From Lingula anatina (taxonomy: Eukaryota > Animalia > Brachiopoda), in assembly GCA_051362555.1 (NCBI GenBank), contig CM120644.1, forward strand, positions 21,784,534-21,848,533: DNA of 64,000 nt. Direction: 5' to 3'. Below the pieces are notes generated by a model, which saw nothing but the letters and a program-made list of their open reading frames with translations, was not told where the DNA came from and searched no databases. Shown piece by piece: positions 7,592-15,810 of this stretch. The position numbers and the translations under genes were made by a program. Numbering within the stretch: the first letter of the stretch is position 1; every line of letters begins with the position of its first letter.

Positions 7592-8928
7592 AAGAGAAAG
7601 AAAGGAGATTTATATTAAGACGCGCATATATTCTTTACGTTGTTAAACGTTAGATCAATCAAGTGTTAAAACTCGAGCCCATGAGTATGAAATCAAAATG
7701 TGTCAGCGTAAGGAGCACCATAATGTCAAATAATACATGTCGACTAACGGCAGTACTTTTTATTTCTTTCAGCAGAGCGGTTTGGATGATGACGTCATTC
7801 CCGAAAAATGGCTAAAGGAAATACAAAGAAGAAAGAAACTTGTGTCCGAGGTATGCAAAAAGTATAAAATGGCAAAAATGCCTTTATGTCTCCTTGATCT
7901 AAAGGTTCAATACGATGCCGAGAAAGGAGCAATAAAGTGACAAACACAAGTATGATGTTCGAAACTTGGCCGTTGCCGGCCGCTTTTATTGTGAATCCTT
8001 ATACTAAAATGAATTAAATTTTGATGTTAAAATTAATTAATTGTGACAGTGCCAAAATACGTAATTTTTTACGCCTGAAAAGACTATTTTATATATAATT
8101 CCCAAAGAACATAGTGCAGACGTTTTAATTTGTGGGGTTGCAAAGAGGCCGAAAAGAAAAATCTAGCCAACGACCGGACGAAGCACGTCGATGTAATCTA
8201 AACTAGAGGACAAGCTAAATCGGCCTAAACGGTGGACGACAGATAAGCTGCGGCGTGCTACCCAACCCTAACTCCCTCATTTTGAGGGAGGGGGAGGTAC
8301 GCTCTTTTCCTTATGATAAACGGGCCATACAGCGAGGAGTAGAGCTCTCCATTCTGTCATCCCTAGTTAGAGAAATTTAGAATTAGAAATTTCAAGTGTG
8401 CCCGCCGGTCTATTATGAATTATGTCTACCAAAAACCAGTAACTGAGCTCCTGAAATAAAGGGTATAATGGAGATAATAAATCACTGGTCAGCGTGAATT
8501 GCTGGACCGAACAAGTTACAAAAATTGAATGGGAAATTAAAAATAAAAAGAAACGGATGAGAATCTGCATGTCTTGCTAGATCTCTGAGGGGGTGGGGGG
8601 GTGAGGTCCGCATGTCTTGCTGGACCCAACAAGTAACGTCACTTGAAGTTAAACATATAAAAAGTTAAACATATAAAAATAAAAAGAAATGGGTGGGAGA
8701 GAATCTGCATGTCTTGCTAGATCTCCGGAAAAAGGGGTGGGTATGAGGGCCGCATGTCTTGCTGGCCTTCGGCATGAAAGCGAGATTGAATGTAAAATGA
8801 TAAATGATAACTAATATAGCCTATGGACAGTGTCACTAAATGAAACTTGTGAAAGTCAGATTTGATAAATGTCACTAAACGTGCGCGGGTGAATCCTCCG
8901 TGCGAGTATATCAATGCGCTAAATAGTC

Positions 8929-9525
8929 CTATTCAAATTGTCCAGTTGCTTGGCTTGACCATAGTGTTGGAGTGCGGATGTATTTCTTGAAAGAGTCCGA
9001 GTTCCAACGACCGAGCCGTCTTATCTGAGCGTCCGACAGGTTATTCTGCACCGCCAGGGAAGCGGCTCCTATTCTGAAACTGTGTCCTTTAAAGCGCGTA
9101 GGGTCCAAGTGACAGAATCGAAGATCCCTCGCCAGCTGTTTGTTGAAGACGTCCCGATGAATGGGTGTGAAGTTCGGGTGACAGAAAAGTGGGCCTGGTG
9201 TGTCCCCCCTCAGCTTGATGTAGTGATCTAAGGCACTTACCCCGCACAAGGGATTGCTTTGAGGGCCAATAACAATGGAAAAAGGAGAGCCTTTAGTGTT
9301 ATGCTTGTAGTTTGAAATTACTAATTCGACTGACTGTTTCCCATCATGATTCGAAAAGAACTTTACGTTTTCCCGGGAGAGGGAGGGGTTGGGGGCCCCC
9401 GATCCCCTAGCTGTCATCTCGCCTATACGTAAAAACCCGTGAAAGGCTGTGAGGTACATTGCCCTGAAGAGTGACATGGTGTAGGAATTGGAAAGGGTGA
9501 GTTCCAAAGCTCTAACAAGTTTTAG
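8929..9525 (-). CDS. Tyrosine recombinase catalytic domain, N-terminally truncated
   Basis: FHGFLRIGE (R), YKHN (K), GHSFRIGAAS (HxxR), LGRW, FKKYIR (Y nucleophile). No Met start or N-terminal domain. Confidence 0.9.
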   Translation of the reverse strand, partial: LKLVRALELTLSNSYTMSLFRAMYLTAFHGFLRIGEMTARGSGAPNPSLSRENVKFFSNHDGKQSVELVISNYKHNTKGSPFSIVIGPQSNPLCGVSALDHYIKLRGDTPGPLFCHPNFTPIHRDVFNKQLARDLRFCHLDPTRFKGHSFRIGAASLAVQNNLSDAQIRRLGRWNSDSFKKYIRTPTLWSSQATGQFE

Positions 9526-11219
9526 TGAACTAAAGCTTCATTGTCGGTGAAGAGCATGACACACCTATTCCTTAACTCCGAGGCCCAAAGGTCAACTGCC
9601 GCGACAATTGGGTAAAATTCTAGCAAGGTGATATTGCAGTTTTGAAAATGCTTTGGCCAAGCCCCGAAAAACCAATTGTTCCTAAATATCGCCCCATATC
9701 CGAGGGAGGCTGCAGCATCAGTGTACAATTTCAGAGCGGGGGAGGTAAGCCATTTGAAATCAAGGAGGAATGATTTCCCGTTGTAGTCGGAAAGAAAGTT
9801 GGCCCAGGTCTCTAGATCCAGTTTGGCCTGTCTAGACAGCCGGATGAAGTGGTGGGGTTTTCTGATACCTATCGTTAGATCAATGAGTCTGCGGAGGAAG
9901 GCCCTGCCCGGTAGAACTACTGAACAGGTGAAATTCAAGAGCCCTATGAGCGATTGTAGCTGTTGTAATGTTACTTTTGCCCTACCCAGGAACTCGGATA
10001 TGAGAGACCGGCACTTTGAGACTTTATCGTCAAGTAGCCTGGCTCCCATCAGATCAGTAACGAGCTCAATACCAGCGAAAGGAAGGACTCTGCTAGGGCC
10101 AAGCGTTTTCTCGCTTGCAATAGGTACGCCTAGATCATTACAGAGGGCCAGGAAATTTTGGAGGTCCTGCTGACACTTTTCAAACGTGGGGGCTATGAAC
10201 AGAAAGTCGTCCAGAATGTGAACCATGGAGTGGGCCTTAAGTTTGTGCTCCGCAATCCATTGCAGAGAGGTACTGAACATTTCGAATATTCTACAGGACG
10301 AGGAGCATCCCATTGGTAGACGCGTGTCAAAATAATACTCATTGTTCCATGTAAACCCTAGAAGGTGATGATCGTCGGGGTGAACCATAAGAATTCTGAA
10401 AGCAGACTCCACGTCAGTCTTGGCCATCCAGGAAGATCTACCTGAGATATTGATGAGCTCTATTGCATTCTCTATAGAATGGTACTGCACGGAGGAGAAT
10501 TCCCTGTCAATGCCGTCATTAACTGACTGTCCGTGAGGAAAGGAAAGGTCGTGGATGAGCCTAAACTTGCCAGGATCTTTCTTCGGGTGGAGACCAATGG
10601 GCGATATTGCTAAATTGGGGAAAGGTTTGGAAGTAAATGGACCGGCCAACCTACCTAGTTCTAATTCAGATGACAACTTTTCATTCACCACGTCGGGCCT
10701 GTCTAGAGCTGACTTGTGGTTACGAGTAGAAGACGGGGATTGAGACCCATTGTGACCTAACTTGAAGCCGATAGTGAAGCCCGAAACAAGTTGCTTTCTT
10801 AAATCAGAAGGATAACCAGAAAGATATTTATTGAGTTTGTTGGGGTCTACTGGGGTTTTTAGGACCCTGGGGGGTAGATGGTGAGTTTCTGTTGGCCCGT
10901 GAGGGGTAGGAGGGGCGGGCAGCTGCTCTATTCTCCGATCTGGGACACTGGGACGCTGGGTGGGTACCCCCTGAGCATCTGAAACATTTGTGGTCGTACG
11001 TGCAATCCCCCCTACAGTGGTTTCCGGAGTGAAATTTGTAGCAGACCCCTTGGGGAAATTTACGAAATGGCTGCCTAGATGTGAATGACCCCCTTGGGCG
11101 AAATTGCTGGACATTGTTATTTGGGCGAGAATTGAGAAGAGCCCTGTTCCAAAGATCCCAATTAGTATCCTCCCAAGGGTCACCAGACCTTTCTTTGTTA
11201 GCCCTGAAGTTGCGGTCAT
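9522..11219 (-). CDS. pol: Reverse transcriptase-RNase H (DIRS/Ngaro type), C-terminally truncated
   Basis: KFRLIHDLS, KTDVESAF, RLPMGCSSS, HILDDFLF, LQSLIGLLNF; RNase H LYTDAA...ITLLEFYPI...FTDNEALV, then an abrupt stop before the last RNase H motifs. Confidence 0.9.
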   Translation of the reverse strand: MTATSGLTKKGLVTLGRILIGIFGTGLFSILAQITMSSNFAQGGHSHLGSHFVNFPKGSATNFTPETTVGGIARTTTNVSDAQGVPTQRPSVPDRRIEQLPAPPTPHGPTETHHLPPRVLKTPVDPNKLNKYLSGYPSDLRKQLVSGFTIGFKLGHNGSQSPSSTRNHKSALDRPDVVNEKLSSELELGRLAGPFTSKPFPNLAISPIGLHPKKDPGKFRLIHDLSFPHGQSVNDGIDREFSSVQYHSIENAIELINISGRSSWMAKTDVESAFRILMVHPDDHHLLGFTWNNEYYFDTRLPMGCSSSCRIFEMFSTSLQWIAEHKLKAHSMVHILDDFLFIAPTFEKCQQDLQNFLALCNDLGVPIASEKTLGPSRVLPFAGIELVTDLMGARLLDDKVSKCRSLISEFLGRAKVTLQQLQSLIGLLNFTCSVVLPGRAFLRRLIDLTIGIRKPHHFIRLSRQAKLDLETWANFLSDYNGKSFLLDFKWLTSPALKLYTDAAASLGYGAIFRNNWFFGAWPKHFQNCNITLLEFYPIVAAVDLWASELRNRCVMLFTDNEALVH

Positions 11220-11976
11220 AAGCTAACCAGTCCCCCCTTAGCCCTGCTAAGACCCTGATGTCTTCAGCGTATTTAAGTAAATTGGGCGCCTCCTGGGGGT
11301 GTTTAAGGGTGTACACTGACATGAAAGTGTGAAAGGCCGTTGTCCATTGGGACATGGAGGTGATCTGAGGCCTTCTACCCTGGGAGACTACCAGTGTGAT
11401 TTTACCGTGGTTGTTTTCCATGGCCAATGGGAGGGGGTCGCCGGGTTGGGGCAATTGCGCTGACTGGTCTTGGAGGAGTAGTGACATGTCGACAAACTCG
11501 TTCCCCCAAATTCGATCTTTTAATTTGTCGTCGACTAGGGCGTGTAAGGGAATGGACTTAGTTGAATACCTATTAGTCTGGGGGGATACTATACCTGTGT
11601 CCGCTGAAGGAGGAGTAGGCGGAGGGTTTTCTGGCAGATTGCGCTGGCCCGACTGAGGTGCCACCGAGTTGGCTGCCAGTGTTGCCATGGCTTGTGACAT
11701 CTCCTTCAGAATGTTGAAGATGGCCTGGTTGTCCACGGGCTGCGGGGTTGAATGTGAACTCCCAGAAGTTGAGGGTAAGGAAGTGTCCGCAGAGGAAGGT
11801 GCAGATTTACGAACAAGTTGCTTCCCCTTACTGACTCGCGGGCGTTTTTCCGATGCTGGAGAGGGGCCGGCGGAAGAAGTGCTCGCAGTAGAGGGAGTAG
11901 GGTGAGTTCTGCTTGCCCGGCGTTTGTTTGGAGTACTCTCAGGAGCTGTTGAACTTCTTGATCTCTTGGGAGGCAC
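10828..11976 (-). CDS. gag: gag-like ORF1 of YR retrotransposon
   Basis: Low-complexity S/P/T-rich N-terminus, W..YDRNFR motif, C-terminal Cys/His knuckles CYKFHSGNHCRGDCTYDHKCFRCSGGTHPASQC. Overlaps the RT ORF in another frame. Starts at GTG preceded by an acceptor-like TTTTCAG. Confidence 0.8.
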   Translation of the reverse strand: MPPKRSRSSTAPESTPNKRRASRTHPTPSTASTSSAGPSPASEKRPRVSKGKQLVRKSAPSSADTSLPSTSGSSHSTPQPVDNQAIFNILKEMSQAMATLAANSVAPQSGQRNLPENPPPTPPSADTGIVSPQTNRYSTKSIPLHALVDDKLKDRIWGNEFVDMSLLLQDQSAQLPQPGDPLPLAMENNHGKITLVVSQGRRPQITSMSQWTTAFHTFMSVYTLKHPQEAPNLLKYAEDIRVLAGLRGDWLAYDRNFRANKERSGDPWEDTNWDLWNRALLNSRPNNNVQQFRPRGSFTSRQPFRKFPQGVCYKFHSGNHCRGDCTYDHKCFRCSGGTHPASQCPRSENRAAARPSYPSRANRNSPSTPQGPKNPSRPQQTQ

Positions 11977-12850
11977 TGAAAAGTGTAATGAAGAGAGCAG
12001 CAGACAGGTGAAATTTTTTGTAAGTTCCCATGTAGTTTTTTATTACTCGGAGGAGACGGGGAAGGTGGCGGGTATCAAAATCGTACTGAGTCGAATTGAG
12101 CAGTGATCCGTTGATTGTTCTCTTGCGACTGTCGTGCGTGAGAGCAAAGTGAGAAAGAATACTATCGTACATTTCGTTAAACGCGACGGCGCGTACCTTG
12201 TGGAACACACCTGACCTAGTTCAACCTGATTGGGCAAAAATTAGTAACGAACCAAATACTCTGATTGGATAAGAAAGATTGGCCAATCACAGCCCACTGC
12301 CGATGCAGCACTGAATCCACGATTCTATGTGCAGCATTGAATCCGAGGCTCGTCAGTTCATGCAGCACTCAATCCGAGGTTTGTACAAGTATGGCAAAAT
12401 TACAATGCGAATCCCGTCGGAACTAGGTTACAATCCGTCGCCATAAAACAACGTTTGACTCAGCCGCCAAACTTCCCTTTATGTCTCCTTGATCTAAAGG
12501 TTCAATACGATGCCGAGAAAGGAGCAATAAAGTGACAAACACAAGTATGATGTTCGAAACTTGGCCGTTGCCGGCCGCTTTTATTGTGAATCCTTATACT
12601 AAAATGAATTAAATTTTGATGTTAAAATTAATTAATTGTGACAGTGCCAAAATACGTAATTTTTTACGCCTGAAAAGACTATTTTATATATAATTCCCAA
12701 AGAACATAGTGCAGACGTTTTAATTTGTGGGGTTGCAAAGAGGCCATAACCTTGGGATCGCAGAGGCCAAGGAAAACCCCACAAAGGACAAAGGAGCCTG
12801 CTGATAAGGACAGAAAGTTTCCAGATGAGTAAGTAGTGCGTAATGAGTAG

Positions 12851-13574
12851 AGGTCGGAAATGTAAAGACACAAAACGTGCCGCTCACCTAGGCGTAGCTA
12901 GGCGGACAAAAATATTACAAAAATAAGGCATGAAAAAATATGCCACTCAACCTGAAAACCAGGTCGGAAAAGTAAAGACACAAAACGTGCCACTCACTCT
13001 GACGAAGCAGAGCGGAATATAAAGACACAAAACGTGCCACTCACCTAGGCGTAGCTAGGCGGACAAAAATATTACAAAAATAAGGCATGAAAAATTATGC
13101 CACTCAACCTGGAAACCAGGTCGGAAAAGTAAAGACACAAAACGTGCCACTCACTCTGACGAAGCAGAGCGGAATGTAAAGACACAAAACGTGCCACTAA
13201 CCTAGGCGTAGCTAGGCGGACAAAAATATTACAAAAATAAGGCATGAAAAAATACGCCACTCAACCTGAAAACCAGGTCGGAAAAGTAAAGACACAAAAC
13301 GTGCCACTCACTCTGACGAAGCAGAGCGGAATATAAAGACACAAAACGTGCCACTCACCTAGGCGTAGCTAGGCGGACAAAAATATTACAAAAATAAGGC
13401 ATGAAAAAATATGCCACTCAACCTGAAAACCAGGTCGGAAAAGTAAAGACACAAAACGTGCCACTCACTCTGACGAAGCAGAGCGGAATATAAAGACACA
13501 AAACGTGCCACTCACCTAGGCGTAGCTAGGCGGACAAAAATATTACAAAAATAAGGCATGAAAAATTATGCCAC
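12851..13574. repeat. 157-bp tandem repeat (~4.5 units) built of three double-hairpin submodules, inside the retrotransposon
   Basis: AAAGACACAAAACGTGCC.CT.ACCTAGG recurs at 12864, 13021, 13178, ~13335 and 13492. Confidence 0.93.
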
Positions 13575-15810
13575 GTCGTTGCCGACTGGAGTAGGATAGA
13601 GGATAAAAGGAAGGAAAATTACCGGTGGTCCTGAAAAGGTCGGGACCTGACAAAAGGGGTAGATGCGCCTATGGGCTTGTTAGCTGATCAAAATCGTACT
13701 GAGGCGAATTGAGCAGTGATCCGTTGATTGTTCTCTTGCGACTGTCGTGCGTGAGAGCAAAGTGAGAAAGAATACTATCGTACATTTCGTTAAACGCGAC
13801 GGCGCGTACCTTGTGGAACACACCTGACCTAGTTCAACCTGATTGGGCAAAAATTAGTAACGAACCAAATACTCTGATTGGATAAGAAAGATTGGCCAAT
13901 CACAGCCCACTGCCGATGCAGCACTGAATCCACGATTCTATGTGCAGCATTGAATCCGAGGCTCGTCAGTTCATGCAGCACTCAATCCGAGGTTTGTACA
14001 AGTATGGCAAAATTACAATGCGAATCCCGTCGGAACTAGGTTACAATCCGTCGCCATAAAACAACGTTTGACTCAGCCGCCAAACTTCCCTTTAACAAAA
14101 GAATGGATTGAAAAAAATGGCCACCATCTTATCGTAGAAGACCAATATAAAATCATATATTGCCGTGTTCCTAAATCGGGGAACACAAATTGGAAGCGCT
14201 TATTACTAGCACTGTCTGGTATTATAAACGATACATCTATGGCTCATGGCAAAAAGGGGCTAAACCCAATGAATGCAGTTAAAAGATATTTGCATACGTT
14301 GGATACGCTGTCGTTTTCGGAAGCAAAACAAAAACTTAAGACCCACTTGAAAGTTATGTATCTTAGGCACCCCTTAGAACGATTACTTTCTGCATATCGT
14401 AATAAGTTGGAAAGAGATCCTTGGACGCATCATAGCGTCTCGTCGCAAGTGTTTCCCTATGTTATGAAACACTATCGCTGTGTAGAACCCATTATGGATG
14501 CCAAAGATAACATTTGAAGAATTCCTTCGTTACGTTGGTGACAATCCAAACTTTCTGAATGGTCATTGGGCGCCCCCAAACGATTTATGTCACCCATGCG
14601 TCATTCAATATGACGTCATAGGGTATTTTGGGACAATAAGCGAAGATGCAAACAACATTTTGAAACTAGTGCATGCGTACCCAGCATTCAAATTTCCAAA
14701 TGTGTACATTAATCCAGAAACAACGTCTAATTTGGTGAATAGATATTATTCAAATGTATCAAAATCGACGTTGCAGAAAATTCGTCCAATTTACGCACTT
14801 GATGCAGCAATGTCGGCTGCTAATTTACGTATTTAGTTAAAGATGCATTTGAAGTCGATCTTTTGCCACAAAAGCCAACCAAATGTTACCACATCCAAAT
14901 AGTGTAATTTACAGGACTACCAAAATACATTGCTTAATGTTAAAGTGATATTTGAACGGATTTTTCTGCTTGCTTTCTGTGATTTTAGGTTACCCAAGTA
15001 GTAAGATAAGATGTTGGGGCACGGTCTTTACAAGAATAAAGTAGGTTACTGGGTAGATAAGTAGGCAGTATGTTAGATAAGATCAGTAAGATATATTTAC
15101 GATCAAAACTTATAGAGATTGCAGTTTATAGCCCTTTTTTGTCTGATCTTGTGATTAAATCGATTTATTCCTTGGTATGTTGACATTATTTGAGTCATTA
15201 GAAACTATGCTTGCACTTACGACTGCTATGTCATTTCGCTAGCTTTTTGTTAATTTTTTTGCTTAATTATAAAATGCTAACGACATATTCGCCCTCAAAT
15301 TTTAGTAAAATGCTAGAGTTTGTACTGGGCTTCAGGTCCCTTGGAGGTCTATGTCTTACACTGAAAATGTCAATATTAAAAATATGTTAACTTGAAGATG
15401 AATATCTAATCAGTCTGCTTTGCTAGTCGGGCTCTATTTTTGTCGGAGTATTACAAGAAACACGATTTTCCTATCAGTATGTTGAAGAAAACTCACAAAA
15501 TAATGTTGCTGCCAATTTGATGCAATGTAATTGCAATGTAATTGTTCCAAATACCATTCAAGTTTATCTACAATTGTATGTACCGGTATTACAGGTAGCA
15601 TAGACATTCAGAAAACATCTCGTGAGACTAGATAACATTTTAAGTTTACAGGTAATATGTCATCAAGACATGTTATGTACAACTGGGTATTAATTGGTGG
15701 TGGGTAGGTAAGGCAATTAGAACTTAAGAACTTCGGGAAGTGGGAATAAAGTTGTACTACAAGTAACAAGGACTATGCCATTGAATATGCTTATGTGTGA
15801 AAATTGAAAA

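Follow-up and report, generated by a model that had tools for sequence, protein, structure and literature searches.

In a 64,000-nucleotide stretch of the Lingula anatina genome (hereafter, the window), a tyrosine-recombinase (YR) retrotransposon at 14094-7881 on the minus strand carries an array of 13 double-hairpin modules, and the conclusion that selection acts on the sense-strand RNA structure of this array is well supported. We propose, with a probability of roughly 45%, that the array would serve as a multi-site signal by which the zinc-finger Gag of the element selects the full-length transcript to be reverse-transcribed. Among the roles suggested by the original prediction, made from the sequence of this stretch, was a multimeric Gag or packaging site, which is now the leading candidate. 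The locus bears on how YR retrotransposons choose, package, and prime their RNA; for DIRS-1 no primer is known as far as the available part of the source goes (PMC7192593). To this question it contributes a 47-nt module in which the fixed and the variable positions are defined, a measured splicing event that sets message apart from template, and a candidate binding domain, together with read-level proof of splicing, exact intron loss, and compensatory variants.

The element and its hairpin array

The element is ordered A1, array region, B1, A2, ORFs, and B2, with the following features.

13687..14094, minus strand: split direct repeat A1, 408 bp, 99.8% identical to A2, starting with the 6-bp core TAAAGG
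near 13895, 13881, and 13846, minus strand: CCAAT boxes in A1, from the sequence
13676..13677, minus strand: exon joint from which an intron is exactly absent in the window copy, with loose ends in X1 and X3 DNA contigs and in 8 X12 reads
13553..13617, minus strand: degenerate first module (a weak fourteenth) with a GUCG-GCAA-CGAC hairpin, found by model R1 at E 0.013 with filters off
12851..13574, minus strand: hairpin array, a 157-bp unit x4.6 with 13 modules, each running from a 7-bp hairpin (Y) through an AGU linker to a 5-bp hairpin (X) and a U-rich spacer
12482..12745, minus strand: repeat B1, 98.9% identical to B2, with AATAAA at 12585 and then a GGCCG-GCAA-CGGCC hairpin
12476..12481, minus strand: core TAAAGG of the internal B-A junction, identical to the hexamer at each end of the element
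12074..12481, minus strand: repeat A2, 99.8% identical to A1
11975..11995, minus strand: splice acceptor of gag, a pyrimidine tract and CAG, from the sequence and RNA reads
10828..11975, minus strand: Gag-like ORF encoding one CCCH finger plus one CCHC knuckle, the eight Cys/His invariant in 14/14 aligned proteins
9522..11222, minus strand: RT/RNase H ORF (RVT_1, E 4e-11), interrupted at 9525 in the window copy
8929..9525, minus strand: tyrosine recombinase, C-terminal part, sharing 47% identity across 186 aa with the YR of related locus L001
8485..8772, minus strand: second hairpin set, five copies (one degenerate), with a stem, a bulged A, and GCA-AGACA-UGC
7881..8150, minus strand: repeat B2, about 270 bp, 98.9% identical to B1, with terminal TAAAGG, the 3' end of the element

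The identification as a YR retrotransposon of the Ngaro kind held. The gag, RT/RNase H, and YR ORFs follow in this order on one strand, the split direct repeats and the internal B-A junction share the core TAAAGG, and a YR remnant is present; the L001 YR to which it is similar matches Phage_integrase. In related loci the YR directly follows RNase H, and three full-length relatives scanned for a methyltransferase after RNase H gave RVT_1 only, this stretch being absent from the window copy. The same ORF order and split direct repeats, and relatives that appear to lack the methyltransferase and carry an SGNH hydrolase, link the element to the Ngaro superfamily of the DIRS order as described in the available parts of the sources (PMC8547959, PMC9210276, PMC4157794). 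However, published Ngaro elements are given there as A1-ORFs-B1A2B2, whereas in the window the B1-A2 junction lies upstream of gag, not 3' of the YR, and RNA joints place it upstream of gag in expressed copies too. In addition, the gag ATG of the window element is made by splicing, and neither a hairpin array nor an intron appears in the published descriptions as far as these were available. From its structure and its SGNH-bearing relatives, we assign the element to the Ngaro kind with a variant layout. A likely precedent for this layout is the amphioxus Ngaro-like element near VCBP2/5 (PMC2632668), in which repeats of 225, 338, and 225 bp precede the ORFs and a further 338 bp follows them, the repeats being duplicated upstream of gag; the available text of that source does not mention an array, splicing, or structure.

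The window copy is broken at the RNase H-YR overlap, with sequence missing at 9525 and near 8381, and RNA reads diverge from it on either side of 9525. A hydrolase profile built from 15 relatives had no match in the window's element. At five empty target sites of the window, the sequence is TCAAAGG or TCAGAGG. The element is inserted antisense in one of six Sulfotransfer_2-like copies in the window (7694-7885 and 14089-14836), a copy that is also frameshifted; the others lie near 2700, 25535, 34632, 44650, and 58909. At 12476-12500, the junction core could form a CCTTTA/TAAAGG hairpin, which folds no better than shuffles (z -0.5 and -1.1), and the CATAAAGG core is also found at the B-A junction of one related family (L017, L070, L078).

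All 13 modules that had been claimed parse as UCCG-Y-U(G/U)AG(U/C)-X-UU from 13534 to 12865 on the minus strand, with an additional X hairpin outside them at 13572-13555 and a truncated end piece, UCCGACCU, at 12858-12851. As had also been read from the sequence, three Y stems pair at 5/5 bp in each copy, the X stem is either GGCAU/AUGCC or GGCAC/GUGUC with one G·U, and on the plus strand a purine bulge with a C-GNA-G loop is formed by Y1 and Y2. The bulge and loop occur in 9/13 modules, Y3 lacking them, and with its constant C-G and G·U closing pairs Y measures 7 bp. Only Y1 offers palindromes that could drive RNA dimerisation. The array is 40% U and 15% A. It has no match in Rfam 15 at E up to 10, and 8 related loci gave 0 Rfam matches at gathering score. 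Since the 157-bp tandem units (4.6 copies, 97% matches) are so alike, the 13 modules represent 3 independent types, to which 7 point differences among the units are added.

Single modules on the sense strand fold into exactly two hairpins each at -14.5 to -15.6 kcal/mol, compared with -8.2 to -13.3 kcal/mol on the other strand, and the folding z of two units is -5.3 for the sense RNA versus -3.0 for the antisense. In the ensemble of the whole array the X2 hairpin reaches a pair probability of only about 0.4, because identical arms of different modules cross-pair. Across 7 distinct rows, 4/7 Y pairs differ on both sides while 98.6% of cells pair, against 15-50% in slid controls; in X, 3/5 pairs were countable in that alignment. 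Other copies in Lingula anatina, seen via short reads and contigs of the same species, showed the same pattern. Among the rows listed, at least 16 variants fall in one unit, 6 of them in stems, and 0 pairs are broken; five further variant rows of the array are all in loops or linkers. Two double changes, 13480 (U>C) with 13471 (A>G) and 13527 (A>C) with 13518 (U>G), are compensatory, their co-occurrence being taken from counts that match in RNA and DNA runs, not from single reads, and the variants at 13517 and 13532 result in U·G pairs. Under random placement of variants, zero breaks occurred in 0.4% of trials, and zero breaks together with two double changes in 0.014%. Overall, there are five separate non-Watson-Crick stem pairs (the Y closing pair, X2, 13255, 13517, and 13532), all of them G·U on the sense strand. 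Thus, the earlier claim of selection on structure is well supported: stem variants keep pairing, and the wobbles are G·U on the sense strand only.

The same data bear on two other readings. The array might be a neutral minisatellite, its hairpins produced by template switching and amplified by slippage, and it does consist of 3 module types only in units 97% alike, with other periods (110 and about 47 nt) in X17 reads, while about half of the relatives lack such repeats. However, template switching restores Watson-Crick pairs with no strand preference, yet the five non-Watson-Crick pairs are all sense-strand G·U; linkers stay constant while stems vary; and other families, too, carry repeated hairpins at the corresponding position. 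We consider this reading quite unlikely. Very unlikely, in our estimate, is a function of the modules as hairpins of single-stranded cDNA, with GNA triloops recognized by the recombinase, or as a self-cleaving ribozyme. DIRS-1 produces single-stranded cDNA according to the available part of the source (PMC7192593), and the loop variants at 13523 and 13520 preserve the C-GNA-G loop. Against a cDNA role, the closing pairs and one X2 pair become C·A mismatches on the cDNA strand, DNA folding of all three module types is weaker on that strand than on the other, and recombination maps to TAAAGG, 370 nt or more from the array. The stability of GNA triloops is not modelled by the folding program. Given that Y3 has no such loop and that the wobble pairs favour the opposite strand, the suggested role of the cDNA triloop was not sustained. 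Nor was self-cleavage: none of the ribozyme catalytic core patterns searched for occurs on the sense strand of the array (4 loose matches to the hammerhead order lie on the barely transcribed plus strand), reads span the unit joint with 59-72 nt sides, and read ends do not pile up in the array.

Splicing of the array and probable loss of an upstream intron

Transcription was analyzed in stranded poly(A) RNA runs of the same species by label, of which X11 and X12 come from one study. The array and the ORFs are read on one strand, with a depth of 22-48 on the sense strand of one array unit versus 0-4 on the opposite strand. RNA depth climbs from about 13850 to 13690, within A1 and below the three CCAAT boxes; transcription starts inside A1. 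In 14 X11 and 14 X12 reads, 13677 is spliced to 11975, which joins A and the first 10 bases past A1 to gag, and 17 X11 and 5 X12 reads pass from A straight into the gag region; the joint from 13677 to 11975 was absent among those listed for X14 (106 reads). The splice joint reads A/TG CCT CCC AAG AGA, so that the gag ATG is created by the splice and the N-terminus is MPPKR; 10/13 aligned relatives start with MP (9 with MPP), followed by basic residues. Because the joining reads skip the array, B1, and A2, these three constitute an intron of the gag message. The array had been placed in a leader, the 5' UTR of gag, and this label proved wrong: it lies between A1 and the B1-A2 junction, in the stretch excised when the ATG is formed. 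Array RNA is present in the poly(A) libraries.

The structure of the window copy indicates which RNA was copied. Two loose ends were found in other copies. One is donor-like, with GTAAGT after 13677 (the 10-base exon end), in contigs whose diverged A repeat is about 86% alike and which, by sequence, form a sibling group; the other is acceptor-like, a pyrimidine tract with CAG lying ahead of 13676 in contigs that match the array side at 99%. In the window copy, 13677 joins 13676 with nothing between. Other copies thus appear to hold an intron before the array, as judged from the two loose ends, each in separate contigs. The donor position at 13677 is the same one that is spliced to gag, and with the first intron lost the window copy therefore has no donor. 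Since the intron is exactly missing and the array is present, an array-containing RNA was probably the transposition template of the window copy, the simplest reading being that this copy would descend from RNA with the first intron removed and the array kept. As would be expected of a packaging signal, the array is on the copied RNA and not on the spliced message.

Further sites were observed in this region. One sibling sequence agrees with the window copy at the first acceptor and over about 40 bases, then departs at 13611, just before the array (9 X11 reads and X1 and X3 contigs); it may lack the array, which would count against the expectation that sibling copies carry it. At 11594-11595, 20 X11 reads exit gag at a CAG/GTATAG donor-like site into sequence not present in the analyzed stretch, which may be a second splice to a part missing in the window copy. 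Just past the array, at 12780-12850, the sequence resembles a branch point and an acceptor, with two UACUCAU motifs, a pyrimidine tract, and CAGCAG; the motifs could in addition pair with the constant UGAGUGG, to which they are complementary, and no reads among those listed use this site.

Spacers of related families

We addressed the conservation of this arrangement in 91 related loci (80 of 454 metagenome matches and 11/11 genome matches), which form 42 families at 85% RT identity. In 21 families an SGNH/GDSL hydrolase ORF lies upstream of gag, and 13/15 relatives' ORFs match GDSL families. The spacer between hydrolase and gag begins after the hydrolase stop codon and is U-rich, as in the array region; relatives' spacers are defined by this upstream hydrolase, for which the window copy has no match. 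A 9-mer is repeated at least 3 times in the spacer before gag in 11/21 families, compared with 0/21 in the RT control; two of the 11 pair with close relatives (76-80% DNA identity), so that about 9 are independent. These repeats sit in short hairpins with family-specific loops, such as GGA-UUYR-UCC with varying outer pairs in L027 and L050, UGUAGU in L074 (four copies), and UUUCRC in L053, besides others; the hairpin check covered the relatives apart from 5 rows of L030/L042. Spacers folding at z -2 or lower numbered 8/21, versus 4/21 RT controls, a modest excess.

The refuting test proposed with the original prediction gave a mixed picture. Variants retain pairing, but the window's motif, even as a loose pattern, occurs in 0 of the 91 related loci, and 10/21 related families have no repeated motif in the spacer. 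With model R1 searched against 93 loci, the best related-locus match reached E 0.07 and formed no array, and a strict two-module pattern had 0 matches in metagenome contigs. In viral contigs a one-module pattern gave 2 matches, one sequence found twice, with a single module whose Y arm is unpaired in register; these were rejected, as the R1 value of E 7e-4 applies to pattern-selected sequences and chance, by our estimate, would yield about as many. RT searches of viral contigs found no relatives.

Splicing may also occur in the relatives. In 6/17 families the 200 nt upstream of the hydrolase contain an exact donor-like AGGCAAGT, against an antisense background of 10 in 519 kb, and an acceptor before gag was found in 7/17 versus a background of 0.22 (p 0.06, a weak result). 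From these sequence signals we infer that the relatives' spacer could be an intron. A conserved GC-type donor-like site, AG/GCAAGT, precedes the hydrolase ORF in L001, L006, L008, L020, L041, and L068, and a weak donor would leave some RNA unspliced. In L005/L006 (1834-2413) and L014 (1-250), a three-way-junction-like repeat of the form UGUCAGCC-UUUGAU...CACUGGCUG was observed in two families 76% alike, with periods of 82 and 61 and with inner stems that change. Eleven contigs with Ngaro-type elements (L081-L091) come from bacterial symbiont bins (Sedimenticola, Ca. Thiodiazotropha, Escarpia endosymbiont) and are likely host DNA in those bins.

Two further readings relate to the intron position of the array. 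According to the first, the main rival though in our view rather unlikely, the modules would act as decoys for U1 snRNP or would regulate splicing, and would thereby keep the internal poly(A) site of B1 from being used, so that transcription from A1 reads through to gag and B2. The AATAAA at 12585 lies between the donor and the gag acceptor, and read-through is therefore required; in EVD, a Ty1/Copia element, internal termination is held back by U1, as far as the available text states (PMC5580714). Moreover, there are 8 GTRAG sites in the 724-nt array and 0 in the window's RT and 3' controls, and one long linker carries two AUUUUUG runs, which we take to resemble Sm sites. However, in the four Y3 modules the stem is preserved but GUGAG is broken; U1 pairing is thus not the constant feature, and the first half of each GTRAG site lies within stem Y (pair probability 0.64-0.92). 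The joints listed for 979 X11 reads include none that leads from a GTRAG site to gag. Relatives' spacers show no enrichment of GTRAG (0.75 per kb vs 0.95 in RT), and L001 and L082 have no B repeat after the spacer. According to the second, a host protein would bind the array, which would then promote RNA export or stability and let intron-retaining RNA leave the nucleus or escape decay. The retained-intron position of the array, its U-rich and A-poor composition, the array RNA in poly(A) libraries, and the position of relatives' spacers after the hydrolase stop codon agree with such a role; but a host factor should impose one motif, yet motifs vary between families, and the template of the window copy already had one intron spliced out. 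Splicing of one intron would by itself aid RNA export. We thus consider an export or stability role unlikely.

A candidate template mark for Gag

Returning to selection of the template by Gag, the template would be the RNA that retains the array and the B1-A2 junction, and the gag start codon would be on RNA without both. Because array-retaining RNA cannot start gag at the spliced ATG, Gag and RT would come from other transcripts and would probably capture the template in trans, which would require a mark on the template. In such a mark, the constant junction of the module (the CG/UG helix end, AGU, and GGC), repeated 13 times, would provide avidity and family specificity. The Gag with its invariant CCCH and CCHC fingers supports this reading, and spacer motifs that differ by family and sit in short hairpins fit recognition by an element-coded protein. 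More tentatively, and with lower probability than we attach to the array itself, each Ngaro family might tag the RNA to be copied with a tandem RNA "operator" array of its own that its CCCH-CCHC Gag would read, with splicing separating coding and template RNAs. If true, such family-specific arrays would give the DIRS order its first defined RNA selection signal and would represent natural orthogonal hairpin-protein pairs that co-evolve family by family.

This proposal has parallels and differences in known systems. TOC1 of Chlamydomonas, a PAT-like element without genes, reportedly combines split repeats with an internal 76-bp tandem array, and thus shares with the window element a tandem array in the 5' portion of a retroelement of the YR type; we know of no covarying structure in the TOC1 array. 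Retroviral packaging signals are likewise stem-loops near the major donor, and zinc-knuckle Gag prefers unspliced RNA, as stated for MMTV in the available text (PMC8096270; also PMC5035971). In contrast, the signal there is a single structured domain, whereas the window has 13 tandem modules, and retroviral Gag is made from unspliced RNA, whereas Gag of the window element is made from spliced RNA. EVD has a dedicated spliced Gag message and an internal poly(A) site that needs suppression, according to the available part of the source (PMC5580714), but it is an LTR element, and its splice makes a stop codon rather than a start codon. Our search of the openly accessible literature yielded no description of hairpins, introns, or packaging signals in Ngaro/DIRS elements, and a splice-made gag start codon with exact intron loss in Ngaro was not found in the literature searched.

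The 10/21 families without a repeated spacer motif, the modest excess of folded spacers over RT controls, and the sibling sequence that departs at 13611 count against this proposal. Position, too, has to be weighed with care in this argument. The skipped stretch also has the B1-A2 junction needed for replication, so that retention of the array alone is no proof of selection. Likewise, the RSV packaging signal is present on both spliced and unspliced RNA in the available text (PMC5035971), and therefore the position of the array by itself is not proof. An equally good candidate for a Gag site is the hairpin set behind the YR, which is more widely conserved and is also on spliced RNA. In the window copy (8485..8772), the outer stems of this set vary yet pair, and among relatives at least 2 copies of one motif were found in 10/20 families, with 0/20 each in the antisense and RT controls. 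The hairpin after the YR stop in relatives (L003, L029, L031, L037, L051, L053, L063, L027, L074) has a long variable stem, a small 5' bulge, 2 bp, and a tetraloop A(U/A/G)GG, the loop of the window variant being AGACA. The AATAAA of repeat B (12585 and 7990 in the window) is followed by a GGCC...GGCC hairpin, and likewise in 5 related families (L001, L012, L017, L031, L065), which include 4/17 families with 1 kb or more behind the YR; this combination is a candidate for a role in 3' end formation or RT priming. The 3' region is linked to B by 18 X11 and 7 X14 reads.
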